DNA from: Raillietiella orientalis
Lineage: Eukaryota
Assembly: GCA_036172245.1 (NCBI GenBank)
Contig: JAYWIR010000081.1
Span: 124,001 to 188,000 of the forward strand
Reading direction: 5' to 3'
DNA: 64,000 bases
This document shows positions 9,790 to 63,458 of the stretch, in pieces. Numbering within the stretch: position 1 is the stretch's first letter; every line of letters begins with the position of its first letter. Under the pieces are notes generated by a model. It worked only from the letters and a program-made list of their open reading frames with translations. It made no database searches and was not told the DNA's origin. The translations under genes were made by a program, and so were the position numbers.

Positions 9790-11986
9790 TTATCACGCGG
9801 TCACGCCGGGGCGTTTAATAATAAGAATAAACTGGTCAGGGACAATGTCCCCAACCAACAGAACGACAGAGAACATAGAAAAATTACCGGCACGCAGGCC
9901 TGGTAAACAGACCGCTCGCAGCGTGGGAGGAATGAGGGGAAACAAACAAAGATCAAAACCTGGAGGGAAGGGTAACGGGTTTTTGGTTAGGCTCCGTACT
10001 GACGGGAATTTAAACGAGGAGCATCTAAAATGTTCCGGAGCCTATGGAGACGCGGATGTAAAAAGAAAATACAAAATTAGTTTATGGAAGGTAGGGCAAT
10101 GATCACCGGGTTGGCGGCCCTTAAGGGTGTGTAAACCGGCGGCGTATAACGGCGAGATTCCTTTTTGTCTCCTCTGTCAAATGAGACCATCTAGCGGATG
10201 CTCTCATGTAGAAGGATGCTTTGCTGATTTCCTCTTGGTGCTGTCCGCTGATTACTAACGCCTGGCGGACGGAAACTATCGCGCGTATGCAACCGATGGT
10301 TGCAATCCTTGCGCTTAGTGACAGCCCGCTCGGCGTGAAGAATCGTCGCAGCAAGTCTCTTGCGGTGTCCACGCGATGCACTAGTGCTGTTGCCAGCCTA
10401 CGTCACAGTCCTTGTAGGACACCGCAGTCCAGAAGTAGGTGCGGAATCGACTCCGTCGATCCGCACCGAACGCAGTTCGCAGACGCAAGTCCCCTGGAGT
10501 CACGATGCCAACGCTCTTTGCACTGAAAACCCCAGTGAAAAAAAAAGCTGCACGGCTTGTTTCCAAGCAAGGAACAGCAGCGAACTGTCAATACACTGTT
10601 GAGGGACTACAAGTTCTTCGGGGGTTACAGCAAGTTCTTCTGCCCACCGGAGTAGACGCTTTACAGTAACACGAGGAGTGGCGGCGTCCGATAACTCACT
10701 CGTCTTCCAGGTAACAAGGAGTTTGGTTTTTCCCGCTATCGTGCAGGAAACCTCCCGCCTCGCCGGTTTGCAATTTTTGTTTCCTGCTCTGAGGGCAGAC
10801 AGCGCTGCGGCAAGAGGCGTGGCAGCCAGGGTATAAAACTTCACCTCGTCCTGCAGTACTTCTTCGAAGGATCGTAGAAAAAATTAGCGCAGGGGGCGAA
10901 GATCTTCAGAGCGTATTCCTTGGAACGCCGCCCAGGATTCAAAAGACTTCAGCCGCCAAGCTTCAAAGTTAGGCAGGAGATCCACGACCGAGCTTCCAGA
11001 AGTGCGGTCAACTGCCGCAATGGAAACCCGAAACCCCGCTTCCTGTATTGAGTGCCCTGCAAAAGCGAGAGAAATCCTCCGCTGCGGGCGGATCTCCGAA
11101 GGAGAATGCGGGCTGGCACACACAAGGGGGATGTCCATAGCTGGGCACACAGTGCCAGCAGTCCGAACTGCACCTGCAGTTCGATTCGTTCCATTGTCAA
11201 GATATTCAAACCAGCATCCCGACGCGGAGCTAACAAATCTTTAAGGCGGATCCTGGATCTTGCCGGACCCCAGAGAGCGTTCCTGAGCAGGCGTTGAGCC
11301 CTCTCTTTCGCCGCATAGGGGGGGTCCAAAACAAAAAACAGGGGACGGAGGAGCGGGGCCACAAAGGTGTTCCCAATAGTCGCCCGTTCCTGCAAGGTAA
11401 ACTTGCCGTTAAAGAACGGGCTGATGGCCAACTCTGCTTTCTGAAGACAGTCCGCCCACGCTTCGGCTGCGCCGTAAGCGCCCAACGGAACGCCAAGGTG
11501 CTTAACGTACCCGCCCTTGGGGATCCCCAGGCGGATCCAGTCGGACTGCCCCTTCCACGACGTACCCACATGAACGACCACGCTCTTCTCTCTGTTCACG
11601 CTCACGCCCGCTCCCCGACGAATCAGGTCGAAGAAATCCTCGACACTGGACGCCGGCGTGGACATGGGGAGCAGAAGAAGCAGGTCATCAGCGTAGGCGG
11701 CCACGGCAGGCGTTCCCGGGCAGGAGCTTGGCAAGTGAGACAGCGTCAGCCTATATGCTCTTAGCACCCACTCAAAGAAGATGCTGAAGGGCAACGGGAT
11801 TAAGCTGTCGCCCTGTCGGATGCCCCTAGGAACGGGAATACCATACACGCGGCAGCCGCTGAAAGTAATGCAGGTTAGCGCATGGCGCAATCACGCGCGC
11901 AAATACAGCACGAGTTGCGCGGGGAACCCAAGGCGTTCCATGAGCTCCAAAAGCAGCTTCTGGTTCACGCAGTCGAACGCCTTGTG

Positions 11987-14900
11987 CGCTCTTGGGTGGA
12001 CGTGTTTCCTCGGTGCTCCTCGTGCCAGGAAGTCTCCCCCAGTGCAAGCGTCGTGTGGTTCGGTTTTCGATCAGGCTGCGATGACTGACGCGACCACCAG
12101 GGATGGCCAGGGGGCAGCGGCAACGCCGCCCCCAGAGGCGATGGAGAGCCAGGGGGCGGCGGCAACGTCGCCCCCAGAGGCGATGGAGGTGGGGGCATCC
12201 GCCCTCACAGAATCGGTCCCCGCTGCAGCGCGGGCGTGGAGCGCCGTTGTGTCGGCGCCATCGCCTGCATCCGCGGCGGAATTGTCGGCCTATGTAGAGA
12301 AGGGGTACAACCCCTTATTGTTCTACAAGGTAGGCAATTTATATTCTTTAGAGAGCGCGCGCGCCTTCTCGAAGGGCATGCGCGCTCTCGATGTGAAAGA
12401 GGAGGAGCTCAGCGCTATGACCATCCGCAGCGGTGGTCAGTACGTTGAGGTCATCTGCAAACATGCAGAGCTGGCCCAACGACTGCTTAAAACCCCCGTT
12501 GTGATGGGGATGCGCAGGCTTCTCTCCACTACGGCGGACCGCAGCATGGTGGTCCACCTGTTAGGCGTGACCGCGCGAATGCGCAAAGAAAAGGTTCGCG
12601 CCGCTTTGGAACAGTTTGGAACGGTCCACGCGCAGTGGACGAAAAGTAGTCCTTTCGTGGACTACACGGGGCTGCAACACGGCCTCACTGCTGCGCGCCT
12701 GACCGTTCGGGAGGGCTGCACTCTTCCCCACAAACTGGTGTTCTAAGGCGAAACCGTCGACCTCTGGTATGTGGGGAAGCCGAAATACTGTGGCTTCTGC
12801 AATACGTCGGGCCACCTTAAAAAGAGGTGTCCCAATGTGCAGTGCCAAGTATGCGGCACAATGGGCCACACGAGAGAGGTGTGCCCAAAAGCAGCAGTGC
12901 GGGGTGTTTCCAAGAGAAACCTTAAAAAACGCGCCCGGCTTCTGCAGAAAAGACTGGCGGCGAAAGCTGCCGCGAAGGCTGTGCCACCCGCGCATAAGGC
13001 CCAGGCCGCACCCGAGAGCCCGGCGAACTACGCCGAACAAGTCGAGAAAACAATCCAGGAGCCTGAGTGGCGGGTGGCTACGGCCAAAAAATCAAAGAAG
13101 GAGAGGAGGATGGAGAAAAAACCCGCGTATCGCCAGAAAAAACAGCAGGCAAGCGAGCAAATTAAAGAACGCAGCGTTGTCGTCGAGCGTATTTCCGACC
13201 GCTGCCGGAAAGAACTCGCCGCTTCCGACGACCACCCCTCTGTTGAGACAGTCAACAGCGAGGGGAGCGAGCCGGCGGCGGCGTCCGTCATCGACACCAC
13301 CATCGATGACGTAGCCTTCGATCGAGCCGCGGATTAGCTGGCAGCCTCGTTGCAGCCAGAACCCTCATAGGCTTTCAAGAAGGCCGTAAGGCGTCCGGCC
13401 TCCCCTCAGGAGTCCCCCACTTCCGACCCCGAAGTGGACGCCGGAAGCGCAACCTCCGTTTCCACGGCACCGCGCAAGAAGGCTGGACGTAAGTCCACAA
13501 AGCCAAGGAAGCTCGTCTCCCCGTCGAAGGGGAAGAGATGGCTTCCGCAAGCGAGGGTGCCATGAGGGTGGGAAACTCTCGTGACCCGTCGCCCGAGAGA
13601 CTCAAACGCGGGGACACGGAGGGGATAGAGGGAGTGGAGGCCGAACAGGTGCCTCAGGTGCCTGAGAAGGCCGAAACCCCCATGGACATCCCGCCAGCCT
13701 CGCAAGAGGAGGGCTCCCCCACACCTTAATCTTCCCAGCAGTAATGCCGGGAATCTCCTTCCGCCGTCGTCTGCGCATCGCCGTTTGGAACGTTAACTGC
13801 ATGACAGACGCCAGCAGGAGAAGAGACATGGCCGCCCTTCTGGAGTCCTACGACCTTGCGCTGCTGCAGGAGATCCACGTGATCTCTGCAGAACAAACGC
13901 AATAGATCGAACGGATCTCCGGAGGGCGGCTATGGTACAGGTGTGGGAGAGCGAAAAGTTGCGGTGTCGCCTACCTGCTTCGGCCAGCCGTCGAGGCCGC
14001 GGCTCGGAACGTGCGGTTCGACGATCACTGTCGTTGTCGGCCAGCTGACTCTCAGGTGGTCCGACTCGATCGATCTGATCGTCACGAACGTGTACGCACC
14101 GAGCGGCAAGGACCTGATGAACAGGAGGGCGAGGAAAGAGTTTTTCCTTGCCTTCCGTGGAGACTGGCTGACCGAAGCAGGCGTGCGGAATGCCCATCTG
14201 GTTGCAGGCGATTTCAACGTTCGCCTGAAACCAGATGAGCAGAATCCCGAGCGTGACCTGGTCAACGAGGTGTGCATGGCGGTGCACACCTGTAATCTGT
14301 TGGCCAGTGCACCGGGGATGGAAGACAGCATTGATCACGTGTTCCTTGACGAGCACCTGTGCCCTCGCGTGGGCAGGCGCGGCAAGTTACCGTGCGAGCT
14401 GTCCGACCATCGCCCGCTAGTCCTCGAAATCCATCCACGCGACAGGGGCGCCCCCTTGTCAGCGTGGCGTCTCCCAGGGGACTGGCTGAAGCTCCCAGAC
14501 GCGGCGGAACATCTCCGCACGTTCATACGGAGCTTCAGTCTGCGGATACTCCAGGATTGGGACCGCTTCGAAGTGAGTGGTTACAGTAACAATCTCCGAA
14601 AAGAAGAATAAGATAGTAGAGTGGAAGACGGGCCTGTTAACAGACGCTGCGACCCTGAGTACGCCTCCCAATGGACTTCTGCGCTCGGGAGCGCTGCTCG
14701 ATGTTCCCATTGAACATCTCAAGTAGCCCCCGGGGCTCATGAACACTTCCGCCCTCCCCTTAAAATGGCAGGAGTCGGCTCTCTTGTTGCAGCACTGGGG
14801 ACTCCCCTGCAACGCCCGCCGACACCACTGGACCTGGGGAGCGGTAGACCCCAATTGCGTCAGGTGTGGGGAACGGGAGTCCCTCCCCCACCTGCTAGTG

Positions 14901-15439
14901 GATTGTGTTGCTTTTCGGCCCCTTTGGTTCCGCTTTGCCGCGGCCATCGGAATCCTCTGCGGCAACCCCAGGGACGCAGTGAGAGCCCTCTTCGTTGCCG
15001 AAGCCCTTCGGCCAGCGGCCTCCTTAGCAGCTTTGTGCTGCCTACGCGGGATCGTCACCGCTTGGAGCAAGGCTACTGGAGGACAACGCGACCAGGGTGC
15101 CATCCAGCCAGCCTCCCAGTTTCTGAGGAGGGCGTCCCGATGGCCCCACCTGGATCCACGAATACAGAAGGAGCTTGCAGGCATCCTGAAAAGGATGCAA
15201 CGGCCCCACCAGCAACTGTGATTTCTTCCCTCACCCTCCCAACTTTTCTTTTGTTTTTTGTTTTGTTTTTTGTTTTTCCCCCTTACCCCTGCTGCCGTGG
15301 TGGACCGTACCGGTCCGCGAACCGGTAACCCGGCAGGCTCTGTGTTTCTTTGTGCGTGGCTGGAGCAATGGTCCAGCCACCGCACGTCTCTGTAGAAGTT
15401 TATTTTACAATAAACGCCCCGGCGAAATCCGGGTGAAAA
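11987..15439 (+). mobile_element. Family C element with both ends intact and the RT deleted internally (junction ~14571)
   Basis: Perfect 14-bp TSD TCGAACGCCTTGTG at 11973-11986 and 15440-15453; ORF1 from 12081 (CGFCNTSGHLKKRC, CQVCGTMGHTREVC); APE 13744-14571; zinc-finger tail to 15221; AATAAA 15409 plus hairpin. Confidence 0.95.
12107..12190 (+). repeat. Two 42-bp tandem units in the family C ORF1 N-terminus (QGAAAT(P/S)PPEAME)
   Basis: ccagggggc(a/g)gcggcaacg(c/t)cgcccccagaggcgatggag occurs twice; related units in the C copies near 36930, 37816 and 62200. Confidence 0.85.
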
Positions 15440-18400
15440 TCGAACGCCTTGTGGAGATCGACCGCGACCGCCAAGGCACCTTGCGTTCCCTCCTGCAGTT
15501 GGCGCCTGATCTTCTTGCCTGCGGCAGTGAGTCTCGCAGCAGCCTGGCTTTGATGCGCCACAAATTCCTGCAGCTGCATTCATGTACGCGCGAAAAGGAT
15601 GTTCGCCCCCATGGATCGTCCCGGAACCGCGTAAGTTTGTTCCGGGCTAACACAGATTCCGCGATACTTCCTAACCGCGCGACTCACAGCTTGGAAAACA
15701 ACTTGACGTCCGAGTTCACCAAGGTGATCGGACGCCAGTTGTTAAGTTGGCGCAAGTCTCCGCCTTTCGGCAGGAGACGCACCTTTGCTGAGCGGAAGGA
15801 ATCCGGGACATTCCCGGATTCACTCATCAGCGTCGCGAGTTTCAGCATCAAGGGAATGAGCTCCACTGCAAAGCACTGATAAAACTCTGCAGGGAGCCCA
15901 TCCTCGTCTGGCGCTTTTCGTCTCTTCAGCCCAGCGATGGTGGACGAATATTCATCCGCCGTGAAGGGCTCGTCGAGACGTTCGTTTTCCTCCTCGCCGA
16001 CAACACGAGCATCCTGAGACAGGAGTATCATAGAAAGAATATCCTCCGTCGGGGATTTCGCGTACAGCGAGGAGTAGTAGCGTCTCACAATGCGGCGTAC
16101 TTCGGCTGGGGCCGAACATTCCTGGCCCTTGTCGTCCAACAGGCATGCTGCTACGGACTGCCAGACCTGGCGCTCGGCCCTCGCCTTGTACTCTGCGAGA
16201 CGCCCGACATCCGCGCGTCTCGAATACGTGCGGGCCTGCAGAAAGTCTCTACTGTTGGCCACGCTCTCACCGAAACCGCGTGGAAGCCGTTGCAAGGGGA
16301 ATTGGCAACAGAACTCGCGAACAGATCTTTTGAGATCGTACCAGTCCGCAAGTTCCTGAATGGCAAAGCCCCGGAGGTATCCACGTAGATGCTCCGCAGC
16401 CTCCGGTTGGCTAAGCCAATCCTCCTGCATCCTCCAGCTTTGCAACGGAGGCCCCCTGCCTGGCGGAAGGATCTCAAACTTCAACCTGTGGTGGTCAGAA
16501 AGCTCAGTCAACAATCTTCCTCTCCTACCCAAACGCGAATGCAGGTTTTCATCGAGGAAAACGTGATCGAGCGATCTTTCCATTCCAGGTTCGCTGACCA
16601 TCATGTTGGCGGCGTGCACGGACGCGCACATCTCGATGGGCAGCGCGCGCTCCCTCGGGCGGCTCCAATCGTCCAAGAGCAGGCGGACGTTGAAGTCCCC
16701 AGCGACGAGGTGCGCCACTTGGAAGCCAGTGTTGTTGAGCCACTGGCTCTGCACCTCACCAAAGAAAGCTACTCTTTCTTCGAGGTAGCGAGAGCCACTC
16801 GGCGCGTAGACGTTCGTAACGAAGAGATCGATGGACTCGGACCATTTGATGACAAGCTGGCATATCCGTCCGTTGTCATCGAAACGAACACTACGCACCG
16901 CTTCCGCCATTTTTCCTCTTACGAGGAACGCGACGCCGCACGTTTGTGCGCCGCCGCACCGCCAATGTTGCGTTCCGCCTGCGCGCTCCTCGATTTCGGC
17001 TGCCTGCTCGTCGCAGATTACGTGAATCTCCTGCAGCAGCGCGAGGTCGAAGGGGCGCAGGGCGTTGGCTACTAATCGCCTCTTCTCGTCGTTCTGCAGT
17101 CCGTTCACGTTCCAACACGTTACGGACGGACGACGAGAAGACGCGATTCCCCGCATTACTGCTGGGCAGGTGGCAGCTTTTTGCTCGCTTTATCCGGCGA
17201 GCAGACGGCGAGCAGCACGACTGGCTGGAGGGGACGGTCGCCACCGTCCTTTGTCGTGCTGCATGCATGTAATGCTTCCACGCCAGGCTTAACCCCGTCG
17301 GGTTTCGTGGAGACATCGCGTTGCTTCTTGGCGAGCGTTACCTGGCTACCCACTTTCGATCGACGCGCAGACGCTTTTGAACGAGTTGTCCTCGTCTCGG
17401 TGATCGGAAGGGCATCCATTTCGGAGTCCGACCGGCGCATGTTCGATCGGGTTTCGGCCTTCTGCGAAGCAGTAACAGGTTCTGCTTTATTGACAGCTGT
17501 CCTGTTTTCGTTTTCCGTCACCAGAGCATAGCTTCTGGTGACGGCTGCTTTCCCGGCGCGCGCGTTTTCAGCGTGCTCACGCGCAGTTGCACGAGGGACC
17601 TTTGCTGAAGTCTTCTTTACTTCATTACGGTTCCACACTTCGAGCAAATGGAGATTGTGCTCCATGGCCATCTTTGAAGCCATCCGCGTCTTTGGACGGG
17701 AGCACTTTCGATGGCTCCGACACGCTCGTCATAGACGCTGCCTTCGGAAGGGCTTTTAATCCCTTCGTTGGCATGGCATCCGCGCCAGTCGAGAGCTTGC
17801 TCTCCGACTGCGACGGCATGAGATTTTTCTCCGCTTTCGCGGTGTTGGATCGCGACGCGGATTTTTTTTTGCCGACTTTCGAAGTCGACACGGCACAACC
17901 CTTCTTAGCCGATTTGGGCTTCTCAGCCACTGCAGGAGGTGAAGGAATGGATCTGACGGTACTGGAAGTGTCCTTACCGCCGTTGTCCATTGGCGTCCCC
18001 GCCGGTTGCTCGAACTCCGAGAGAGCCGGGCGTGCTTGGGAAGGACAGCTATTGCGCCTAGGGGGACCTACCATTGCCCCGGATTCCCCGCACCCTTTCT
18101 TTTGCGGCTCCCCTGCCGCGAGAGAGGGTGCGCAGGGCTTCGCGTGCGAGGTTTCCTGCTGCTTTGGGGCGACATTCCGCCTCGCGTTTTTACCGAATTT
18201 CTGCCGTGGGGTCTCCAGGTTTTGCGCAGATTTTTTCTTTTTATTCGCGCTTTGTTTTCTAGGATGGAGCTCCGCGGCTGCCTTTTTTCGCAAAAGATCC
18301 GGGCAATTTTTCAATTGGTGCCCGGATACTTTGCAATAACGGCATTTTCCAGAGGGGCATTTATCCAAACAATGCCTTTCCTTCCCGCATTGCTCGCACG

Positions 18401-19157
18401 TTCTTACTTTGCCCACAAACCACAGGTGAACGACCGTGTCTTTTGCTTGTAGTTTGGTGGGCAGCAGACGGCGGTCCGGCATTGTAAGCCGGACTCCAGC
18501 GACTCCGCTGTGTATGGACGGGAAGTCCTTGAGGTTGCTACGCACCCTCCACAGCGCATGGACCGTGGCGAATTTCGCCAACGCGTTCCGAATGTCAATA
18601 TCGGTGATTTCCGACTCGATGTCGAAAATCTCCGCCACAAATGAGTCGTCCATGGCGGCCGGGAAGACCTTCTGGCCACGGATAGCCAACGGGGTGCGCA
18701 GCAAGCGTTGCACAAGTGCAGCGTCTTTGCAACGCACCTTGAAATAGCCCATGTCTTTTACAGGCATAATGGCGAGGAGGTCCTCCTCCCGCCCGCCAAC
18801 ACGGGTCAGTTCATCGTTGAACTGATTCCCGTCGCGCGCAGAAAGAAAACCACTCACCTTATATCGAAGAGTGGGTCTATAGCCTTGGGCTACGTATGCC
18901 CGCAACTCCGACTCGTCGAGTGGTTTCCCTTTGACGGCTGCTGTGGCAGCAACGTCAGCAAAACTCCTCTCCATTGGCGAGAAAGACGAAGTGGAGGCGG
19001 CCGTCGGCTCCGCGATTGCAGATCCGGATGCTGTTCCTCCAACTTCAGTAGCTTCAAGTTGGGTCGACATCGTCGTCAAAATGTACGACGCCAAGATGAA
19101 GCGGATGAAAGCACGGAGACGAGAGCGAAGAAAAACACTTCCGCACTCGATTGAAAT

Positions 19158-22100
19158 TTATCACCCGGTCACGCCGGGGCGTTTATTAATAATAATAAAC
19201 TGGTGAGGGACAATGTCCCCAACCAAGAGAACGACAGAGAACATAGAAAAATTACCGGCACGCAGGCCTTGTAAACAAACCGCTCGCAGCGTGGGGGGAA
19301 TGAGGGGAAACAAACAAAAATCAAAAACTGGACTGAAGGGTAACGGGTTTTTGGTTAGGCTCCGTACTCAAGGGGATTTATACGATGAGCACCTAAAATG
19401 TTCCGGAGCCTATGGGGACGCGGGTGTAAAAAGAAAATACAAATTTAGTTTATGGAGGGTAGGGCAATGATCACCGGGTTGGCCGCTGATGAGGGTGTGT
19501 AAACCGGCGGTGTATTGCGGCGAGATTCCTCTTTGTCTCCTCTGTCAAATGAGGCCATCTAGCGGATGCTCCCATGTAGAAGGATGCTTTGCTGATTACC
19601 TCTTGGTGCTGTCCGTTGATTGCCAACGCCTGGCGGACGGAAACTATCGCGCGTATGCAACCGATGGCTGCAATCCTTGCGCTTAGTGAAAGCCCGCTCG
19701 GCGTGAAGAATCGTCGCAGCAAGTCTCTTGCGGGGTCCACGGGATGCAATAGTGCTGTAGCCAGCCTACGCCACAGTCCTTGTAGGACACTGCATTCCAG
19801 AAGTAGGTGCGGAATCGACTCCGTCGATCCGCACCGAACGCAGTTCGCAGACGCAAGTCCCCCGGATTCACGATGCCAACGCTCGTTGCACTGGAAACCC
19901 CAGTGAACGAAAAGCAGCACGGCTTGATTTCAAGCAAGGGGGAGCGGCGAACTGTCCATACACTGTGAAGGGACTACAAGTTCTTCGGGGGTGACAGCCA
20001 GTTCTTCTGCCCACCGGAGGAGTCCCTTTGTAGTAGCACGAGGAGTGGCGGCGTCCGCCAACTCACTTGTCTTCCAGGTGCCAAGGAGTTTGGTTCTTCC
20101 CGCTATCGTGCAGGAAACCTCCCACCTCGCCGGTTGGTAACTGTCGTTTCTTGCCCTGAGGGCAGACAGCGCTGCGGCAAGAGGCGTGCCAGCCAGGATA
20201 GAAAACATCACCTCGTCCTGCAGTACTTCTCCCAAGGATCGTGGAAAAAATTGGCGCAGGGTACGAAGATCTTCAGGGCGTATTCCTTGGAACGCCGCCC
20301 AGGATTCAACAGACTCCTGCCGCCAAGCTTCAAAGTTCATTGGGCGGCAGGAGATCCAAGAGTGTGCTTCCAGAAGTGCGGTCAACTGCCGCAATGGAAA
20401 CCCGAAACCCCGCTTCCTGTATTGAGTGCCCGGCAGAAGCGAGAGAAATCCTCCGCTGCCGGCGCATCTCCGCAGGAGAATGCGAGCTGGCACACACAGG
20501 GGGGATGTCCATAGCTGGGCACACAGTGCCAGCAGACGGAACTGCACCTGCAGTCCGATTCGCTCCATTGTCAGGATACCCAAACCAGCATCCCGACGCG
20601 GAGCTGACAAATCTTTAAGGCGGATCCTGGATCTCGCCGGACCCCAGAGAGCGTTCCTGAGCAGGCGCTTAGCCCGCTGTTTAGCCGCATAGGGGGGGTT
20701 CAAAACAAAAAACAGGGGACGGAGGAGGGGGGACACAAAGGTGTTCCAAATAGTCGCCCGTTCCTGCAAGGTAAACTTGCCGTTAAAGAACGGGCTGATG
20801 GCCAACTCTGCTTTCTGAAGACAGTCCGCCCACGCTTCGGCTGCGCCGAAAGCGCCCAACTGAACGCCAAGGTACTTAAAGTACCCGCCCGTGGGGATCC
20901 CCAGGCGGATCCAGTCGGACTGCCCCTCCCACGACGTACCCACAGGAACGACCACGCTCTGCTCTCTGTTCACGCTCACGCCCGCTCCCCGACGAATCAG
21001 GTCGAAGAAATCCTCGACACTGGACGCCGGGGTGGACATGGGGAGCAGAAGAAGCAGGTCATCAGCGTAGGCGGCCACGGCAGGCGTTCCCAGGCAGGAG
21101 ATTGGCAAGTGAGACAGCGTCAGCCTGTATGCTCTTAGCACCAACTCAAAGAAGATGCTGAAGAGCAACGGGCTTAAGCTGTCGCCCTGTCGGATGCCCC
21201 TACGAACGGGAATACCATACACGCGGCAGCCGCTAAAAGTGATGCAGGTTAGCGCGTGGCGCCAGCACGCGCGCAAATACAGCAGGAGTTGCGCCGGGAA
21301 CCCAAGGCGTTTCATAAGCTCCAAAAGCAGCTTCTGGTTTACGCAGTCGAACGCCTTGTGGAGATCGACTGCGACTGCCAAGGCACCTGGCGTTCCCTCC
21401 TGCCGTCGGCGCCTGTTCCTTTTGCCTGCGGCAGTGACTTTCGCAGCAGCCTGGCTTTGCTGCGCCAGGACTTCCTGCAGCTGCATCCATGTACGCGCGA
21501 AAAGGATGTTCGCTTCCATGGATCGTCCCGGAACCGCGTAGGTTTGTTCCGGGCTCACCACAGATTCCGCGATTCTTCCTAACCGCGCGACCCACAGCTT
21601 GGAAAACAACTTGACGTCCGAGTTCACCAAGGTGATCGGACGCCAGTTGTTAAGTTGGCGCAAGTCTCCGCCTTTCTGCAGGAGACGCACCTTCGCTGAG
21701 CGGAAGGAATCAGGGACATTCCCGGATTCACTCATCAGCGTCGCGAGTTTCAGCATCAAGGGAATGAGCTCCACTGCAAAGCACTGATAAAACTCTGCAG
21801 GGAGCCCATCCTCGTCTGGCGCCTTTCATCTCTTCAGCCCAGCGATGGCGGACGAAAATATATCCGCCGTGAAGGGCTCGTCGAGACGTTCGCGTTCCTC
21901 CTCGCCGACAACACGAGCATCCTGAGACAGGAGTATCTCAGAAAGAATATCCTCCGTCGGGGATTCCGCGTACAGCGAGGAGTAGTAGCGTCTCACAATG
22001 CGGCGTACTCCGGCTGGGGCCGAACATTCCTGGCCCTTGTCGTCCAACAGGCATGCTGCTCCGGACTGCCAGACCTGGCGCTCGGCCCTCGCCTTGTACT

Positions 22101-25064
22101 CTGCGAGACGCCCGACATCCGCGCGTCTCGAATACGTGCGGGCATGCAGAAAGTCTCTACTGTTGGCCACGCCCTCACCGAAACCGCGTGGAAGCCGGTG
22201 CAAGGGGAATTGGCAACAGAACTCGCGAACAGATCTTTTGAGATCGTACCAGTCCGCAAGTTCCTGAATGGCAAAGCCCCGGAGGTATCCACGTAGATGC
22301 TCCGCAGCATCCGGTTGGCTAAGCCAATCCTCCTGCATCCTCCAGCTTTGCAACGGAGGCCCCCTGCCTGGCGGAAGGATCTCAAACTCCAACCTGTGGT
22401 GGTCAGAAAGCTCAGTCAACAATCTTCCTCTCCTACCCACACGCGAATGCAGGTTTTCATCGAGGAAAACGTGATCGAGCGATCTTATCATTCCATGTTC
22501 GCTGACCATCAAGTTGGCGGCGTGCACGGACGCGCACATCTCGATGGGCAGCGCGCGCTCCCTCGGGCGGCTCCAATCGTCCAAGAGCAGGCGGACGTTG
22601 AAGTCCCCAGAGACGAGGTGCGCCACTTGGAAGCCGGAGTTGTTGAGCCACTGGCTCTGCACCTCACCAAAGAAAGCTACTCTTTCTTCGAGGTAGCGAG
22701 AGCCACTCGGCGCGTAGACGTTCGTAACGAAGAGATCGATGGACTCAAACCACTTGATGACAAGCTGGCATATCCGTCCGTTGTCATCGAAACGAACACT
22801 ACGCACCGCTTCCGCCATTTTTCCTCTTACGAGGAACGCGACGCCGCACGTTTGTGCGCCGCCGCACCGCCAATGTTGCGTTCCGCCTGCGCGCTCCTCG
22901 ATTTCGGCTGCCTGCTCGTCGCAGATTACGTGAATCTCCTGCAGCAGCGCGAGGTCGAAGGGGCGCAAAGCGTTGGCTACTAATCGCCTCTTCTCGTCGT
23001 TCTGCAGTCCGTTCACGTTCCAACACGTTACGGACGGACGACGAGAAGACGCGATTCCCCGCATTACTGCTGGGAAGGTGGCAGCTTTTTGCTCGCTTTA
23101 TCCGGCGAGCAGACGGCGAGCAGCACGACTGGCTGGAGGGGACGGTCGGCACCGTCCTATGTCGTGCTGCATGCATGTAATGCTTCCACGCCAGGCTTAA
23201 CCCCGTCGGGTTTCGTGGAGACATCGCGTTGCTTCTTGGCGAGCGTTACCTGGCTGCCTACTTTTGATCGGCGCGCAGACGCTTTTGAACGAGTTGTCCT
23301 CGTCTCGGTGATCGGAAGGGCATCCATTTCGGAGTCCGACCGGCGTATGTTCGATCGGGTTTCGGCCTTCTGCGAAGCAGTAACAGGTTCTGCTTTATTG
23401 ACAGCTGTCCTGTTTTCGTTTTTCGTCACCAGAGCATAGCTTCTTGTTACGGCTGCTTTCCCGGCGCGCGCGTTTTCAGCGTGCTCACGCGCAGTTGCAC
23501 GAGGGACCTTTGCTGAAGTCTTCTTTACTTCATTACGGTTCCACACTTCGCGTGGCGCCGCAAATGGAGATTGTGCTCCATGGCCATCTTTGAAGCCATC
23601 CGCGTCTTTAGACGGGAGCACTTTCGATGGCTCCAACACGCTCGTCATGGACGCTGCCTTCAGAAGGGCTTTTAATCCCTTCGTTGGCATGGCATCCGCG
23701 CCAGTCGAGAGCTTGCTCTCCGACTGCGACGGCGTGAGATTGTTCTCCGCTTTCGCGGTGTTGGATCGCGACGCGGATTTTTTTTTGCCGACTTTCGAAG
23801 TCGACACGGCACAACCCTTCTTAGCCGATTTGGGCTTCTCAGCCACTGCAGGAGGTGAAGGAATGGATCTGACGGTACTGGAAGTGTCCGTACCGCCGTT
23901 GTCCATTGACGTCCCCGCCGGTTGCTCGAACTCCGAAAGAGCCGGGCGTGCTTGGGAAGGACAGCTATTGCGCCTAGGGGGACTTACCATTGCCCCGGAT
24001 TCCCCGCACCGTTTCTTTTGCGGCTCCCCTGCCGCGAGAGGGGGTGCGCAGGGCTTCGCGTGCGAGGTTTCCTGCTGCTTTGGGGCGACATTCCGCCTCG
24101 CGTTTTTACCGAATTTCTGCCGTGGGGTCTCCAGGTTTTTCGGAGATTTTTTCTTTTTATTCGCGCATTGTTTTCTAGGATGGAGCTCCGCGGCTGCCTT
24201 TTTTCGCAAAAGATCCGGGCAATTTTTCAATTGGTGCCCGGATACTTTGCAATAACGGCATTTTCCAGAGGGGCATTTATCCAAACAATGCCTTTCCTTC
24301 CCGCCTTTCTCGCACGTTCTTACTTTGCCCACGAACCACAGGTGAACGACCGTGTCTTTCCCTTGTAGTTTGGTGGGCAGCAGACCGCGGTCCGGCATTG
24401 TAAGCCGGACTCCAGCGACTCCGCTGTGTATGGACGGGAAGTCCTTGAGGTTGCTACGCACCCTCCACAGCGCATGGATCGTGGCGAATTTCGCCAACGC
24501 GTTCCGAATGTCAATATCGGAGATTTCCGACTCGATGTCGAAAATCTCCGCCACAGATGAGTCGTCCATGGTGGCCGGGAAGACCTTCTGGCCACGGATA
24601 GCCAACGGGGTGCGCAGCAAGCGTTGCACAAGTGCAGCGTCTTTGCAACGCACCTTGAAATAGCCCATGTCTTTTACAGGCATAATGGCGAGGAGGTCCT
24701 CCTCCCGCCCGCCAACACGGGTCAGTTCATCGTTGAACTGATTCCCGTCGCGCGCAGAAAGAAAACCACTCACCTTATATCGGAGAGCAGGTCTATAGCC
24801 TTGGGCTACGTATGCCCGCAACTCCGACTCGTCGAGTGGTTTCCCTTTGACGGCTGCTGTGGCAGCAACGTCAGCAAAACTCCTCTCCATTGGCGAGAAA
24901 GACTAAGTGGAGGCGGCCGTCGGCTCCGCGATTGCAGATCCGGATGCTGTTCCTCCAACTTCAGTAGCTTCAAGTTGGGTCGACATCGTCGTCAAAATGT
25001 ACGACGCCAAGGTGAAGCGGATGAAAGCACGGGGACGAGAGCGAAGAAAAACACGTCCGCACTC
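19158..25064 (-). mobile_element. Family B full-length element, copy 2, head-to-tail with copy 1; only a few disabling stops
   Basis: ORF1 ~24986-23064 (577-aa piece); ORF2 pieces 23064-21826, 21774-19930 and 19920-19471 with APE, KAFD, YADD and CVRCG; GATTGAAAT at 19149-19157 and 25065-25073. Confidence 0.95.
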
Positions 25065-34555: not shown

Positions 34556-34603
34556 CTTCTTTCTAGATGAAGAAGGCCAGGAGCATTTATCGGCAGCGCA
34601 GGA

Positions 34604-37681: not shown

Positions 37682-37695
37682 TCGAACGCCTAATA

Positions 37696-38886
37696 CGCTC
37701 GAGGGCGAAAGTGTTTTCTCGGTACTCCTCGTTCCAGAAAGTCTTCCCTAGTGCAAGCGTCGTGTGGCTCGGTGGTCGACCAGGCAGCGTTGCCTGACGG
37801 GAGTACCAAGAATGGCCAGGGGGCAGCGGCAACGCCGCCCCCAGAGTAGATGGAGAGAAAGGGGGCGGCGGCAACGTCACTTCTAGAGGTGATGGAGGTG
37901 AGGGCATCCGCCCCTACAGAGCCGGTCCCTGTTGCAGCGCGGCCGTGAAGCCCCGTCATGTCGGCGCCATCGCCTGCAGCCTCGGCGGAATTGTCTGTGG
38001 AGGTGAGGTATAACCCCTCATTGTTCTACAAGGTTAGCAATTTATATTCTTTAGAGAGCGCGCGCGCCTTCTCGAAGGGCATGCGTGCTCTCGATGCGAA
38101 AGTGGAGGAACTCAGCGCTATGACCATCCGAAGGGGGGGTCAGTACGTTTAGGTCATTTGCAAACAAGCAGAGCTAGCCCAACAACTGCTCAAAACCACC
38201 GATGTGATGGGGACGCGCAGCATCCTCCCCACTACAGTTGACCCCAGCATGGTGGTCCACCTGCTAAGAGTGACCGCGCGAATGCGCAAAGAACAAATTC
38301 GCGCCGCTTTCGAACAGTTTGGAACGGTCCACGCGCAGTGGAATAAAGTTAGTCCTCTCGAGGACTACACGGGGCTGCAACACGGCATCACACAAGCAAA
38401 CGTGACCGTTCGGGAGGGCTGCACCCTTCCCCACAAACTGGTAGTCGATGGCGAAACAGTCGACTTCTGGTTTGTGGGGAAGCTGAAATACTGCGGCTTC
38501 TGCAATACGTCGGGCCACCTCAAAAAGAGGTATCCCAATGTACAGTGCCAAGTATACGAAACAATGGGTCACATGAGGGAGGTCTGCCCAAAAACAGCAG
38601 TGCGGGTGGTTTCCAAAAGTAATCTGAAAAAACGCGCCCGGCTGCTGCAGAAAAAGCTGGCGGCGAAAGCTGCCGCGAAGGCTGTGCCAACCGCGCCCAA
38701 GGCCTAGTCCGCATCCGAGATCCCTGCGAACGACGCCGAACAAGTCGAAAGAACTAGTCAGCAGCCTGGGTAGCAGGTGGCAACGGCCAAAAAGACAAAA
38801 AAGGAGAGGAGATTGGAGAAAAAGCTCGCGTACCGCCAGAAAGAACAGCAGGCAAGCGAGCAGATTAAGGATTGCAGCGTTATCGT
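37696..38886 (+). mobile_element. Family C copy: 5' UTR and ORF1, interrupted by family D
   Basis: Colinear with 11987-13185; starts CGCTC; CGFCNTSGHLKKR knuckle. Confidence 0.9.
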
Positions 38887-51702: not shown

Positions 51703-51989
51703 CAACTGGGAAATCAGTACCAGGACCTCGTCGGCATCCTGCAAAGGATGGAAGCTCCACGTAACGGGCAGTGATCCCTTCCCGGCCCTCCAATTGACAA
51801 GTGTTTGTACTTTTTGTTTAATTTTTCTTTTTGTTTTTTCCCCCAATCCCATCCGTTGCCGTGGAGTGTCAAGTAGGTCTAAGCACCGACCACCCGACAT
51901 CTCCAGAGAACTATTGGCCGCAGCGGGGCCTTGTACTGCGAAGACTGTTAGTTTTTTTTCATAAACGCCCCGGCTTGACCGGGTGAAAA
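51703..51989 (+). mobile_element. Family N 3' terminal fragment
   Basis: ...DLVGILQRME..stop, TGATCCCTTCCC, T-rich tract, ATAAACGCCCCGGCTTGACCGGGTGAAAA. Confidence 0.82.
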
Positions 51990-52708
51990 TGTCGAACTGT
52001 ACGTTGCGCAGCGCATTTTCGACGGCTGGCTTCAGCAGGAAGGCCACTCCACGGGAGTGATTCCCGACTAATCGGTAAAGTAGCCTCTCCCCTGTGATCC
52101 TCTCGATCTCCTGGACGTCCTCTCCTCTGAGCGCGTGCGTCTCCTGGAGAAGAGCCAGGTCGAAAGGTCGCAGGGTGTTGGCCACGCCGCGCCTCTTGCC
52201 TTGGTCACGCAGCCCGTTGACTTTCCAACAGGCTATGCGTAAGTGCCGGCAAGTGGCGATTCCACGCATCACTCTGTTGATGGTGGTGGCGATTTTGTTG
52301 CCGTCTCCTGTTCGGGAGGCGGATGGTCGTTGTCCTGGTCGGCGGGCATCGCTTCGGCTAAAGGTGTCTCGTCGGTTCCTGGACGTTGTACACCAGTATC
52401 CTCTGGCGAGGCCCTTTTTTCAACCGAGGAGTCGCGTGACCTCGCGGACATTGCCTCCTCGTTCTCTGAGGGCATTTCCTCCTCCACCTGAGGGGGAACG
52501 ACGCGCCCAGAGTTCTGGGACTTCCGCCCCGCCTTCCTTTTCGGGAGGGCAATGGAGGGAGCGCTTCCGGCTTCCGCTTCGGACTCGGGTGTTTCCGGGC
52601 CTTTGGCTTCCGCCGGCCGCCTCACCGCCTTCTTGACAGCCTTGAGGGGCTGCTTGAAGCTGGCCGACACTTCCTCCGCCGCCTGCGCGAAATTCTTTCC
52701 GTCGCTGG
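51990..52708 (-). mobile_element. Element fragment O: ORF1 tail and APE N-terminus
   Basis: WKVNG, LQETH, GVAFLL...VQFD; TGATG stop-start at 52267-52271. Confidence 0.85.
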
Positions 52709-53080
52709 GTGAGGTGGGGAGAAGAACCTAGAGTCACCCCCGAATTACTTGTAGTCCCTTCACAGTGTGTGGACAGTTCGCTGCTCCCCCTTGCTTGGAA
52801 ACAAGCCGTGTGGCTCTTCGTTCACTGGCGTTTTCAGTGTAACGAGCGATGGCATCGTGTTTCCGGGGGGACTTGCTTCTGGACTGCGGTGTCCCACAAG
52901 GTGACCCTGGCGGAGGCTGGCAACAGCACCATCGCACCCGGAGGATACCGCAAGATACCTTCTGCAACGGTTCTTTACGCCTATCGGGCTGTCTACAAGC
53001 CAAAGGATTGCTACCGTCGGTTACGTTCGCGCCATAGTTTCAGCCCGTCAGGCGCTGGTAATCAACGGGCAGCACGAAGT
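52709..53080 (+). mobile_element. Family B-like ORF2 C-terminal fragment with internal deletion
   Basis: VTPELLVVPSQCVDSSLLPLAWKQAV..VHW.FQCNERWHR matches the family B C-terminus. Confidence 0.8.
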
Positions 53081-53643
53081 TAACGAATTTGTTATGCCTT
53101 CACTACCTGCAGTTATATTTCCGCTTCTTGATGCTGGAAAATTGATGCATTTATTACGTTTCTAGACGATATATTGTTGCTCTAATGTATTTCTCTAAAA
53201 AAAGAGATTACTTCCTCTTCAACTACGTAATACCATTTAGTGTTTTTGCATTTCTCGACAGACATTTTGCGTGAGATAATGAAACCATGCTTTCCAAAAA
53301 GCAAATAGCTCTCTTAATTTTAGATTCTGAACAATATGATATCTGTTTTTTCCAAGCCATGATAGGATTCTGAAACCATTTTCTGCTTTCAATTTTTTGC
53401 TCCAATAAATCATCTGCAAACAATTAATGCACATAAGACTGGGTGGATTTTTGACCCGAGGAGAATAACACAGAGGGCGCTTAGTATGTTAAAAGGTAGA
53501 TGTGCTAAGCACAAAAAGCAATCGGAGGTTCATTTCAGTTAGGATATGCTGCTCATTACTCTTTAGTTTGCACTAACTGGCCGCTGCTATTCTGTCATAG
53601 AAACAGATTGGTTTGACTATTTAGACGAATTTTGTAGCAATTC

Positions 53644-53982
53644 ATGGATGAAAAGTCTGCGGGACGAGTACTGCATGCTAATGCCAGAACAACAGAGGCA
53701 ATGCGTAGAGAGATACGTAATTGTAAAGAGAGCACGATAAAAACAGCAAAAAGATTTCATGTTAACCCAAAAACCGTTACGAAATGTGAAAAAAGAGAAG
53801 ACACAAAAGATCTTTCGATGGGGCCGAAAAAGATCAAATCCACAGTACTTTCTGAAGCTGAAGAGGAGGCAATAGTTGCTTTCAGGAAAATTACAGAACT
53901 ACCTTTGGATGATGTATTCAGGAGACCATTCCTTCATTTGACGAAATCAAGCTCACATAGATGTTTGCAGCGCCCGCTATAA
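53644..53982 (+). pseudogene. IS481-family transposase N-terminal (HTH) fragment; DDE integrase core missing
   Basis: G.VLH.NA.TTEA.RR.I....ES....AKR...NPKTV.K..KR....DL..GP....STVLS..EE.AIVAFR..T.LPLDD...HLT.SS.HRCLQR follows the alphaproteobacterial IS481 transposase pattern as I recall it. Confidence 0.85.
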
Positions 53983-54009
53983 TTATGACTTCAGAATGCT
54001 CATTCTTCG

Positions 54010-54234
54010 TCAGTTGTACAAGGCTTGCCTTCGAGAACGAAAAGTTGTTTTTGTAACTTCTAGATTTTTATGTTTATCCGCGGGTTTTGCGTCTAAAAGA
54101 ATGGTCTGCGCAGCTGCGATTGTTCCTTCCTGATCTCTCGTAAAAGAAATAATAGCAGGGTGGTAAGATTTAGTGTCTAATGACCAATTCTTGGCAATCA
54201 ATCTAACATCACCATATAAATGAATCTTTGACAA
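54010..54234 (-). pseudogene. Fragment resembling the region just upstream of the toprim domain in conjugative Tra/primase proteins
   Basis: HPAIISFTRDQEGTIAAAQTILLD...ADK...EV.K.TF recalled as similar to Rickettsiales/Legionella Tra-toprim proteins; not verified by search. Confidence 0.5.
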
Positions 54235-55259
54235 ATCTATTTTTCCTTACAATCAGCAATCAGCACATTGATCAAAATTTCGATGTATTTCTAAACTGTA
54301 TCTATTTTTCAACGAAGGAAACGTTTCATACGAAACCCTACAGCTCACAATTTTGACTCTCTCGAATCTCTTGATACAATGATATTTGATTGATGTAAAA
54401 TCACAAACAAGATATTACAAAAATTTGTTTAAAACTCGTCGTTTCGTCGCATCTGAAGAAGTTGATGCTTTTGCATCCATAACAGCCGATCATCCCACCG
54501 AGAACCTTTACACTCTTTAGCTTGTTCTAACCATATTTCTGGACCTTTTTCCAGCTTTTCCTTAGTCCGGTAGCAGTATTTTTCCTTACTAGGATGATTA
54601 GCAACAATCTCAAGTATCGGATTTTGCCAATCTCTTCAGCTCTTTGAAACACTGAGTGATTTTCAAGACCTTCATTCAGTAAGCGGTCTTTCATGATAAC
54701 TGAGCCTGCCGATGCATCGTCTTAGCATCTTCTGGTACTCCCCGCTCTTTGATCGACCAGCATCCATTTCGCTCGTTTGATTGCCCAAGGCTGCAGCGGT
54801 CCCTACCGAAAACCCAGGGACGTGATCACCAGAGGATTCATCTTCTGCAAAGCCTTTAGCAGCGCTCAAGCCATGGATGATCACATTTTCTGGAGCAATA
54901 CTCACCGTGGCAATTTCGAAATATGAAAGTAAGATTAAAAAAGTACCCAAAAAATGTTCATCGAAGCAGCAATCCTGGCGCCTTAACGCGCAAATCACCC
55001 TTTTTGCTAAATTTCCTCAGCGCAAATTCAGCCATAATGACTGTAAATGTTGTACTTGTTGGCTCACCCTGGAGATAATTTTAAAGTATGTCGGTTGTTG
55101 ATGTTGGTAAGCAATTGGGATCTTTAGGTGGAGAAGGTGTCGCTTGTCTTCCAAAGAGATGGAACAAGTTTTGGTTGTTTTGCATTTTGGAACTATAAGA
55201 CTAGTATTTGGAAGTTCATAAAGCAATTGTGCAATTATTAGTGATTGAATAGAAGGAAT

Positions 55260-56320
55260 GCGACGGCGGATTGAACAGCTGGCGTGACGTCACATCGCAT
55301 CGATCCGTCAGCGGAACGAGTATCGATCGCCGGCACGCTTTTGATGGCCACGCTGCACGCTTTGATTGTTGGGCGTGGCGCTTCCTCCACCTTGCCTGTA
55401 ACACCTCTTTCGCCGGTGCGGGCGCGGTTTTTTTAATGATTTTTATTTTACCTGTGACCAGCTGCCAGCCTTCCTCGTCGACAGTCTTTTCTGGGAGCTT
55501 CTGCACCGAGTCCCTTTCCAGCTTCGCGACTTTGTCGGAGCCGACGGCTGATCCCCTTTTGTGAGGTTTCTTACTATTTTTGCCTTCCCTTCCTTCTTTT
55601 GCGGAAGTTCCGGCGTTGGAGCGACGTGCATCGGGCACACCACTTTGGTGTGGCCCTTCGCGCCGCACGTTGAGCAAAATGCGTCCAGGCAACGCTTTTT
55701 CAAATGCCCGAACGACTTACAGTTTCCACAAAATTTAGTTTTCCCCACAAACCAGATGTCGAGGAACTCGTCGCCAATTTGGAGCTTGTGGGGAAGCTGT
55801 ACGCTTTCTCGAAGCGTTACAGGCGCGCCTACTCGCCTACTTAATGCACCATTCACTCTGAAGGTGTTAGGCTTTCTCCACATAGCGAAAACGCTTGCGA
55901 ATTTTTCCAGTTTAGCGCGGATGGCCTTCTCATTCATCCGCACTGTTAACCCTGTTAGGTGGACCACAATGGAGTGGTCCACCGTGTGTGGGAGTAAATT
56001 CCTGCCCTCAAATTGTACGGGCGTGCAGAGCATCTTGTGGGTAAAAGCTGCATCCTTGCAGATGAGCTCCGCCAACTGCCCTCCGCTCCGTATTGACATT
56101 CAAAGAATTTCATGGTCGGAAATGCCCTTCTTTTTGATGGAATTGACGAACTTTTGCGCCCTTAAAGGTGAATATAAATTTCCTACCTTGTACAGGAGGG
56201 CCGGATTGTAGCCCTCCTGGATGTATAATTGGATTTTGGCGGCGACATCGGACGTTTCCGCCGCTGCCACCGCGCTCCACGCCCTAGCCGTAGTTACGGG
56301 TTCAGAAGTAGTGGTTAGAA
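55260..56320 (-). mobile_element. Family I element, 5' part (ORF1, slightly 5'-truncated)
   Basis: ARAWSAV..GYNP.LLYKVG; CGNCKSFGHLKKRC and CSTCGAKGHTKVVC; links to 46422 through GCG(A/G)CGGCGGATTG. Confidence 0.87.
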
Positions 56321-61382: not shown

Positions 61383-62403
61383 GTACGGCCTAGGTCGTGG
61401 GCGCGGGTGGCACAGACTTCGCGGCAGCTTTCGCCGCCATCCTTTTCTGCAGAAGGCGGGCGCGTTTTTTAAGCTTTTTCTTGGAAACCACCCGCACTGC
61501 TGCTTTTGGGCACACCTTCCTCGTGTGACTTTTTGTGCCGCATACTTGGCAGTGCACGTTGGGACACCTCTTTTTGAGGTAGCCCGACGTATTGCAGAAG
61601 CCACAGTTTTCGGCTTCCCCACATACCAGAGGTCGACGGTTTCGCCTTGGACCACCAATTTGCGGGGAAGAGTGCAGCCCACCCGAACGGTCACGCGCGC
61701 AGCCATGACGCCTTGTTGCAGCCCCGTGTAGTCTTCGAAAAAACTAACTTTCGTCCACTGCGCGTGGACCGTTCCAAATTGTTCCAGAGCGGCGCGAAGC
61801 TGTTCTTCGCGCATTCGCGCGGTTACGCCTAACATGTGGACCACCATGCTGCGGTCCGCCGTAGTGGGGAGGAGCCTGCGCGTCCTCATCACAACGGGGT
61901 TTTAAGCAGTCGTTGGGCCAGCTCTGCATGTTTGCAGATGACCTCAACGTACTGACCTTCGCTTCGGATGGTCATAGCGCTGAGCTCCTCCTCTTTCGCA
62001 TCGAGAGCGCGCATGACCTTCGAAAAGGCGCGCTTCTCTCTAAAGAATAGAGATTGCCTACCTTGTAGAACAATGAGGGGTTATACCCCTACTCAACATA
62101 GGCCGACAATTCCGCCGCGGCTGCAGGCGATGGCGCCGACACAACGGCGCTCCACGCCCGTGCCGCAGCGGGGACCGATTCTGTGGGTCCGGATGCCCCA
62201 CCTCCATCGCCAGTGGGGGCGAAGTTGCCGCCGCCCCCTGGCTCTCCATCGCCTCTGGAGGCGGCGTTGCCTCTGTCCCCTGGCCATCCCTGGTGGTCTC
62301 GTCAGTCATCGCTTCCTGATCGACTACCGAACGACACGACGCTTGCACTGGGGGACACTTCCTGGCACGAGGAGCACCAAGAAAACACATCCACCCTGGA
62401 GCA
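61383..62403 (-). mobile_element. Family C copy: 5' UTR and ORF1; 3' part lost
   Basis: Colinear with 11987-13010; 5' end TGCTCCAGGGTGGATGTGTTT. Confidence 0.9.
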
Positions 62404-63458
62404 CGCAAGGCGGTCGACTTCGTGGACCAGGAGCTTTTGTTGGAGCTCCTGGGTCGCATGGGCTTCCCACCCTTCCTACTAACCTACCTTCGCTCTTGCT
62501 GGCGCAACGCTATAATCAACGTCTCTTTCAGTAGTTAACAAGTGTACGGCGTGCCGGTGCGACGGGGCATCAGGCAGGGCGATAGCCTTAGTCCCCTGCT
62601 CTTCAGCTCCTACTTCCAGTTTGTGCTGAGAGCATACAGGGTGACTTTGGCTGCTTTGCCGAGCTCGTGCCCCGGCACGCACGCCGTAGCGGCTTACGCC
62701 GATGATCTTCTGCTCCTTTGGCCCATGTTCGCCCCGGTAACCGCAGTCGAGGACTTCTTCGACCTGTTAAGTCGTGGGACTGGACTACGGGTAAATAAGG
62801 CAAGGTCATCGGTGGTAGCGGCTGGTGCGACGTGGGTCGGACGGCCTGACTGGATCCGTTTGTGGATCCCCATGGCGAGGTGCTTGAAGTTCCTTGGTGT
62901 GCCGTTGGGGGACTATTCCCCTTAGGAAGCGTGGTCGGGACGTCTCCGGAAAGTAGAGTTGGAGATCGTCCCGTTCTTGGAAGACAGGTTTCTCCTTCCG
63001 GAACGGTCCGCGGTGTGAAACGCGTTCGCGGCTTCCATCCTCCAGCCCCTGCTTTTTGTTTGCCCCGTCCCGCTGCAGTTGACGAAACGGACGAAGGACC
63101 TGCAAATGATCGCCCTTTGGGGAAGAGGGAGGCCCTGACTCCCGTTGATGAACTTGTGTGCTCCGCGTCGGGATGGCGGTCTCGGTCTCTTGACGCTGGA
63201 GAGAGTGGAGTCTCAGCTGCGATTACGTACCCTGGCCATCGCAGCGAAGTTATGGAGCACCCCTAGGTGCATTCAGACCCGCCTTCTAGCCAGCCGTGTG
63301 TCCCGCTGCGATGGACTCGCATCTTTTCTTCTGCGCCCAGGCCAGAAGATAAGAAGATGCGGCCTACAGCTCGGGCGCGTGGCAACATTGGTCAAGGAGA
63401 ACGTCTGGATGGCATGCAGTTCCGCCAACTCCTCCGCATGGCTGGAATAATCTGTCTG
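62404..63458 (+). mobile_element. Element fragment P: RT from RKAVDFVDQ onward
   Basis: GIRQGDSLSP, YADD, KFLGVP, DGGLG. Confidence 0.88.

Follow-up and report, generated by a model that had tools for sequence, protein, structure and literature searches.

Long interspersed nuclear elements (LINEs) that insert at specific sequences are known to use ribosomal DNA (rDNA), telomeres, small RNA genes, microsatellites, and one DNA transposon as targets. Transposons are also listed among LINE targets in the accessible part of PMC4640811, and the standard case of a LINE targeting another transposon, as given in the accessible part of PMC6719617 (citing Christensen et al. 2000), is Tx1L in Tx1D of Xenopus laevis. 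The element described here, family C, lies in a 64-kb stretch of contig JAYWIR010000081.1 from Raillietiella orientalis (positions 124,001 to 188,000, hereafter the window, in which all coordinates are counted). It resembles Tx1L and Tx2L of the Tx1 clade, which are sequence-specific LINEs with an apurinic/apyrimidinic endonuclease-like (APE) domain and have their target inside another family of transposable elements. Tx1L, however, inserts into one DNA-transposon family, Tx1D, whereas C is found antisense in a catalytic coding motif of at least three LINE families. This likeness is one of target type; the nearest solved relative of the clade of C is human L1 ORF2p. Taken together, the evidence makes it probable that C is a sequence-specific L1-like APE LINE whose target is the DNA coding for motif A (K-A-F-D, or KAFD) of the reverse transcriptase (RT) in sister LINE families.

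R1 in 28S rDNA also gives a 14-bp duplication, the length found around C. R1, TRAS, and SART further resemble C in their precise junctions, staggered cuts, and use of the APE domain as the specificity determinant (presumed in the case of C), as far as the accessible parts of PMC1919474 and PMC7265360 describe them. Their targets, however, are host multicopy sequences (rDNA, telomeric repeats) and not retrotransposons, and, unlike members of the R1 clade, the elements surrounding C match L1 ORF2p best among solved structures. A third comparison is with the L1-type LINEs Zepp and ZeppL of green algae, which insert into existing copies and so give nests and tandem arrays (PMC8226300 and PMC3446292, accessible parts). 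The 64 kb of the window, at 55-60% GC, similarly make up a nest of L1-like LINEs, the comparison being one of nest architecture and not of sequence. No nucleotide-level target is given in the accessible parts of those two sources, whereas here several families are involved and the codon position is defined; nor is such a target given in the accessible parts of 10.1101/2025.03.28.645958, 10.1101/2024.02.27.582245, 10.1101/2022.06.16.496473, or PMC10030371. A literature search, which did not extend to the primary Zepp papers, turned up no report of LINEs with an RT or APE coding motif of other LINEs as their target. What appears to be new is the type of target, sequence-specific APE LINEs, Tx1L in a transposon, and Zepp nests being already known.

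A blastn search of the window with copy C1 returned four C copies with a 5' end (at 11987, 36768, 37696, and, on the minus strand, 62403) and two with a 3' end (C1 at 15439 and C2 at 37681), and found no further C 5' or 3' ends in the window. All four 5' ends are preceded, in a single register, by a 14-mer that is antisense to (H/G/R)-K-A-(F/L/V)-D codons, and both 3' ends are directly followed by the identical 10-mer TCGAACGCCT. C1 (11987-15439, plus strand, 3453 bp) terminates in GGGTGAAAA and is flanked by the two copies of a 14-bp target-site duplication, TCGAACGCCTTGTG, which are identical at 14 of 14 positions (both plus strand). The left copy, at 11973-11986, is antisense to the H-K-A-F-D codons of host element B, and the right copy, at 15440-15453, stands directly after the C1 3' end. 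The remaining 14-mers are TCCAAAGCCTTACC before the C2 5' end (36754-36767, plus strand, host G), TCGAACGCCTAATA between the 3' end of C2 and the 5' end of C3, which form a head-to-tail pair (37682-37695, plus strand), and TCGACCGCCTTGCG before the C4 5' end (62404-62417, minus strand, host P). An earlier note on this DNA had claimed that all four 5' ends stand in identical register at KAFD-type 14-mers and that both 3' ends precede one sequence, and reading and alignment bear this out for 4 of 4 and 2 of 2 ends, respectively.

Read antisense, the 14-mers encode HKAFD in B, GKALD in G, and RKAVD in P, followed by C/F-V-x-Q-x-LLLELL. Extended into the flank, the same reading gives HKAFDCVNQKLLLELM (B), GKALDCVDQELLLL (G), and RKAVDFVDQELLLELL (P), which are RT motif A of these elements. 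We take the metal-binding Asp of motif A to be the first D of DLHKAFD and the C cut to fall in the codon of the second D. Insertions of C at KAFD-type codons are always antisense to the host LINE. The occupied sites have AAGGCnnTnGA^yT.CGT..ACCAG in common. In what follows, amino acid (aa) positions in the second open reading frame (ORF2) are in the numbering of B2, a paralogue of B, in which KAFD lies at aa 581-584 and the APE motif GDFN at aa 164-167.

Target-primed reverse transcription is an established mechanism, and the junctions can be accommodated in it as follows. The C endonuclease would nick the host-sense strand between A and C/T in 5'-AAGGCGTTCGA^CTGCGT-3', and the freed 3'-OH would prime cDNA synthesis on the 3' end of the C RNA, with its conserved hairpin and GAAAA; the cDNA start TTTTCACCC comes after ...GGCGTTCGA on the host-sense strand. 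A cut in the second strand 14 bp away would lead to the 14-bp duplication, and the new C copy would lie antisense to the host, in most cases complete at its 5' end, and would split host ORF2 at motif A. The duplication would regenerate the site, so that a later C could insert beside an earlier one to give head-to-tail pairs. Because the KAFD motif is conserved among families, one specificity would serve many hosts. Junction geometry suggests that the host-sense strand is nicked first, and by analogy with R1, TRAS, and Tx1L we infer that the site is read by the APE domain and not by pairing of RNA with the target.

Such pairing is the alternative that survives best. In this scheme, read-through C transcripts with downstream UCGAACGCCU would anneal to the nicked KAFD strand, and the specificity would perpetuate itself. 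RNA-DNA target pairing has been proposed for R1 and R2-type elements, and it could account for the identical TCGAACGCCT after both C 3' ends, even though host G has TCCAAAGCCT in its 5' 14-mer; moreover, since one 3' hairpin is common to all families, an RT-less copy such as C1 could borrow the RT of a sister element in trans. Pairing would nonetheless require a correctly placed nick beforehand and leaves unexplained why the second cut should lie at a fixed 14-bp offset, and it is judged unlikely compared with recognition by the endonuclease.

A second alternative is a short cleavage preference (TTCGA, for example) or a structural or chromatin hotspot that, with small numbers, only appears to select KAFD codons because the region is filled with LINE open reading frames. 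Any insertion into such a nest must strike some part of a LINE, two unrelated families abut one site in ORF2 (near aa 302-306), and a separate family likewise has TCGAAC next to its 3' end at 51989, in V-Q-F-D codons of an APE. Yet TTCGA occurs 159 times in the window and GTTCGA 38 times (both strands), whereas all C junctions fall at the 13 KAFD-type sites of the window, in one orientation and one register, and the occupied sites share the much longer pattern given above; a 5-mer or other short preference therefore fails to explain the distribution and has a distinctly low probability. The exact 11-mer TCGAACGCCTT occurs three times in 64 kb, namely in the two duplicates in B and in B2. Chance is excluded as the source of the C/KAFD junctions.

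The 3' end at 51989 might have marked a C copy at a site other than KAFD, but this was rejected: its likeness to C1 is only 57% over 260 nucleotides (nt), compared with 72% between C1 and C2 and 69% between C1 and C', the nearest RT-bearing relative of C. It is thus a separate family and not a counterexample. The piece, at 51730-51989 (plus strand), is a 5'-truncated 3' end with the tail GGGTGAAAA as in C. Its flank at 51990-52003, TGTCGAACTGTACG, is antisense to V-Q-F-D codons of the element M APE and has the TCGAAC core in common with the C target.

The hosts themselves argue for separate events. Host B (9790-19148, minus strand) is an L1-like LINE with a full 5' end that is split by C1 at ORF2 aa 580-584; the long open frames on both sides of C1 (501 aa of APE, 313 aa of RT, and 510 aa of ORF1) indicate that a fairly intact element was struck. 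Next to it, B2 (19158-25064, minus strand) carries the site TCGAACGCCTTGTG uninterrupted at 21347-21360. When B2 is aligned to B, its positions 525-4254 match 19160-15440 (97%) and its positions 4241-6401 match 11986-9832 (92.6%), so that the two halves of B overlap on B2 by exactly 14 nt and B2 represents a paralogous empty site. The RT of host G (35380-36767, minus strand) is present from the KALD codons downstream (ORF2 aa 581-1040) and that of host P (62404-63456, plus strand) from the RKAVD codons downstream (ORF2 aa 581-930), their 14-mers abutting the 5' ends of C2 and C4, respectively. Over the 400 nt beside the C 5' ends, the host flanks are 63% (B/G), 67% (B/P), and 68% (G/P) identical, and over the RT region (aa 585-920) the three hosts are 50-53% identical in aa, as distant as any families in the nest. 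C1, C3, and C4, by comparison, are 83-91% identical over their first 400 nt, with C2 at 68-72% to them, and host-specific bases reach right to each C junction. With hosts at 63-68% and C1, C3, and C4 at 83-91%, the C insertions in B, G, and P are independent events and not one copied event. Independent insertions at the same nucleotide and in the same orientation, as expected of a target-specific LINE, are thus found in three host families and at one head-to-tail junction.

Multiplication of one ancestral C insertion by segmental duplication, or its spread by gene conversion between LINE copies, is largely refuted and retains only a very slight probability: the window is indeed a rearranged nest with tandem and deleted copies, in which B and B2 are near-identical neighbours, but the divergence of host flanks and host RTs exceeds that of C1, C3, and C4, the junction 14-mers and adjoining bases are host-specific, and B2, the closest paralogue of B, is unoccupied. 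The earlier note had named descent from a single duplicated insertion as one of the outcomes that would overturn its reading, and the junctions in the window speak against it; its statement that the three hosts are different families holds at both the nucleotide and the aa level. It was also observed that the C1 insertion point coincides exactly with a fall in identity between B and B2 (97% to 92.6%), and C1 may end a gene-conversion tract between these tandem neighbours. Contigs of sequencing run X1 (a DNA run, share 0.19) were aligned to positions 9000-20000; among the contig ends listed none lay at 11987 or 15439 (138 loose ends lie beyond those listed).

Family C is an L1-like APE-type LINE, and the copies at hand are degenerate, RT-less derivatives. 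It has an APE, CCHC knuckles in ORF1, a C-terminal knuckle, a target-site duplication, and an A-rich tail, and no long terminal repeats. C1 begins with a 5' untranslated region (UTR) of about 95 nt, followed by an ORF1 with one in-frame stop, an RNA-binding-like middle part, and two CCHC knuckles, CGFCNTSGHLKKRC and CQVCGTMGHTREVC; near its start lies a 42-nt tandem repeat. In every C copy, the start of ORF1 was seen to carry about 2 to 2.8 units of a 41-42-nt tandem repeat that encodes (Q)GAAATPPPEAME-like units (12106-12188, 36885-36999, 37818-37897, and 62202-62284). The C1 APE spans ORF2 aa 8-283 and has the GDFN and SxDH motifs. Against Pfam Exo_endo_phos, C1 13883-14608 scores E 2.7e-4 and 21.2 bits, under the cut-off of 24.5, and the domain aligns over aa 8-283 with sister-family APEs that pass this cut-off. 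It is closest to the APE of C' (63% aa identity), the host APEs being about 50% identical to it. From aa 283 the C1 ORF2 jumps to the C-terminal zinc knuckle (aa 994-1054), about 2.1 kb of RT being missing relative to C', and the element ends in a 3' UTR with a terminal hairpin and a GAAAA tail.

The other copies are less complete, and all C copies in the window carry stops or frameshifts. C2 (36768-37681, plus strand) is divergent and internally deleted, C1 positions of about 1-327 being joined to 2908-3453. C3 (37696-38886, plus strand) is the 5' 1.19 kb of a C copy truncated by the 3' end of the minus-strand LINE E, a later insertion, and C4 (61383-62403, minus strand) retains 1.02 kb from the 5' end of a copy, is 91% identical to C1, and ends at a rearrangement junction. 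C' (5791-9446, plus strand) is 74% identical to C in nt and has an RVT_1 match in Pfam with E 1.2e-17; its own KAFD codons, at 7348-7359, read AAAGCATTCGAT. A protein search with the C' ORF2 gave one close relative, P0001 (72%), and the C1 APE had 0 matches among PDB sequences. Scans for C ORF1 returned 46 pattern matches and 0 relatives in public viral contigs, and 598 pattern matches and 0 relatives in public metagenome contigs. An RT-profile scan of metagenome contigs yielded 166 relatives, of which 80 were retained, all of them at only 22-37% identity and nearly all uninterrupted across KAFD.

A module AATAAACGCCCCGGCG....CCGGGTGA(A)n was observed at the terminus of all ten 3' ends located, from all families (9446, 9790, 15439, 19158, 33287, 37681, 38886, 42065, 46423, and 51989). 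No covariation was found in the terminal hairpin, its 5 pairs being invariant across the ten 3' ends, and an Rfam search gave 0 matches. The module may be an RT recognition signal that permits trans-mobilisation of RT-less copies, and RT-less C1 could have been mobilised in trans through it.

Several observations weigh against targeting of KAFD codons by C. The sample is small, consisting of three host junctions and one head-to-tail junction in one 64-kb nest. The 14-bp duplication is seen once, C1 being the only copy to have kept both flanks. The C2/C3 pair is no simple re-insertion, given that the 14-mers flanking C2 disagree at 6 of 14 positions; C2 may be the deletion product of two copies. 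An RT domain is lacking in the C copies at hand, having been lost from C1, the only copy that spans the region, and no intact or RT-bearing C copy was found in the window. The nearest relative, C', sits elsewhere, with its 3' end antisense in element X at ORF2 aa 280, and other families in the nest insert at seemingly unrelated places. Finally, 9 of the 13 KAFD-type sites are empty, including that of B2, which is identical to the occupied site in B.

The occupied sites (11973, 36754, 37682, and 62404) and the empty ones (2419, 7348, 21346, 28096, 30586, 40938, 44214, 48527, and 59443) differ in the Lys codon, which is AAG (AAGGC) at all occupied sites versus AAA (AAAGC) at 7 of the 9 empty sites (Fisher p 0.021 when the spacer between C2 and C3 is counted and 0.045 when it is not). 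This contrast is at most suggestive of a recognition base or synonymous escape.

The earlier note had gone further and described C as a site-specific hyperparasite that disables its rivals. Precise, orientation-specific insertion into three hosts, the 14-bp duplication, and the empty site all uphold the site-specific part of that description, but rival-killing goes beyond the data. Each C insertion does split host ORF2 at motif A. A safe-haven strategy, in which C lands in transposons and spares genes, predicts the same pattern and fits it equally well; with 9 of 13 sites empty and identical predictions from both motives, sequence is unable to separate the two. According to the accessible part of PMC6719617, a safe haven is the accepted reading for Tx1L in Tx1D.

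Related, nested LINEs fill nearly the entire window, the GC content of which is 54-62% over most of its length. Pfam detects APE (Exo_endo_phos), RT (RVT_1), CCHC knuckles, and the zf-RVT knuckle across many open frames on both strands. A tblastn map, made with ORF1 and ORF2 of B2, one nearly intact copy, as queries, resolves at least 15 LINE pieces from about 12 families, with the head-to-tail pairs B2-B and C2-C3. L1-type LINEs are thus inserted into one another, with tandem 3' parts, as in nests of the Zepp/ZeppL type. The best solved-structure match for the RT of this clade is human L1 ORF2p (8sxt, E 2.5e-20). In the alignment "avdlhkafd" stands opposite L1 "sidaekafd", placing KAFD opposite EKAFD of L1, and the C-terminal Cys-rich region of sister element K (CxxC...H...C) aligns to the Cys-rich region of L1 ORF2p. 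The sole stretch without LINE matches, at about 52800-55600, has a lower GC content (0.445-0.49) and may represent non-LINE DNA that was there first, with the nest growing around it.

Other families in the window also appear to re-use sites. Element X carries B2 and B head to tail, both in sense orientation, precisely at the GDFN codons of its APE. The 9-mer ATTTCAATC stands at all three B/B2 junctions (9781-9789, 19149-19157, and 25065-25073), and with a single copy of it the X frame is restored as VDFNLRLLTIE; family B therefore seems to have used one site twice. Further junctions were noted on the side. The X 5' end (27262, minus strand) and the I 3' end (33287/33288, plus strand) abut, in antisense, the ORF2 linker site LP.GF at aa 302-306, as LP|KGFGE in host H and LPLGFLD| in host J, in a register compatible with a 15-bp duplication; a shared hotspot or coincidence could underlie this. 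That X and I/K are one family using this site was rejected, the X APE being 49% identical to that of K and the I RT 93% identical to that of K. The Y 5' end (about 5795-5800, minus strand, in C') precedes the IER codons of the C' APE by 13 nt, and in one X1 contig, at window position 13905, a B-type 3' end is joined to a C1-like APE immediately before the IER codons. These two joints are consistent with a third site-specific family that makes a 13-bp duplication. Another X1 contig has a joint at 14212, inside the GDFN codons of C1.

Precise re-use of ORF2 sites may be common in this clade, each hint resting on one or two junctions. Tentatively, and with less confidence than is placed in targeting by C itself, a guild of L1-like families can be imagined that home with single-nucleotide precision to codons of ORF2 catalytic motifs. 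In such a guild, C would use RT motif A in antisense with a 14-bp duplication and B the APE GDFN codons in sense with a 9-bp duplication, and the border before IERISGG in C-type APEs may serve a B-like family. If this were true, mutual homing alone would build gene-free, possibly centromere-like LINE islands, and an arms race would be visible in synonymous codons (AAG at occupied versus AAA at empty sites).

If targeting of KAFD codons by family C is true, the RT active-site coding sequence of other LINEs would be a new class of LINE target, and C a clear case of a transposon living on transposons. Such a target would be hard to mutate away and present in every related family. C would also be a natural source of an APE endonuclease that recognizes a long site, and its insertions a testable mechanism by which LINE-only nests, such as the Zepp clusters of algae, would grow without damage to genes.

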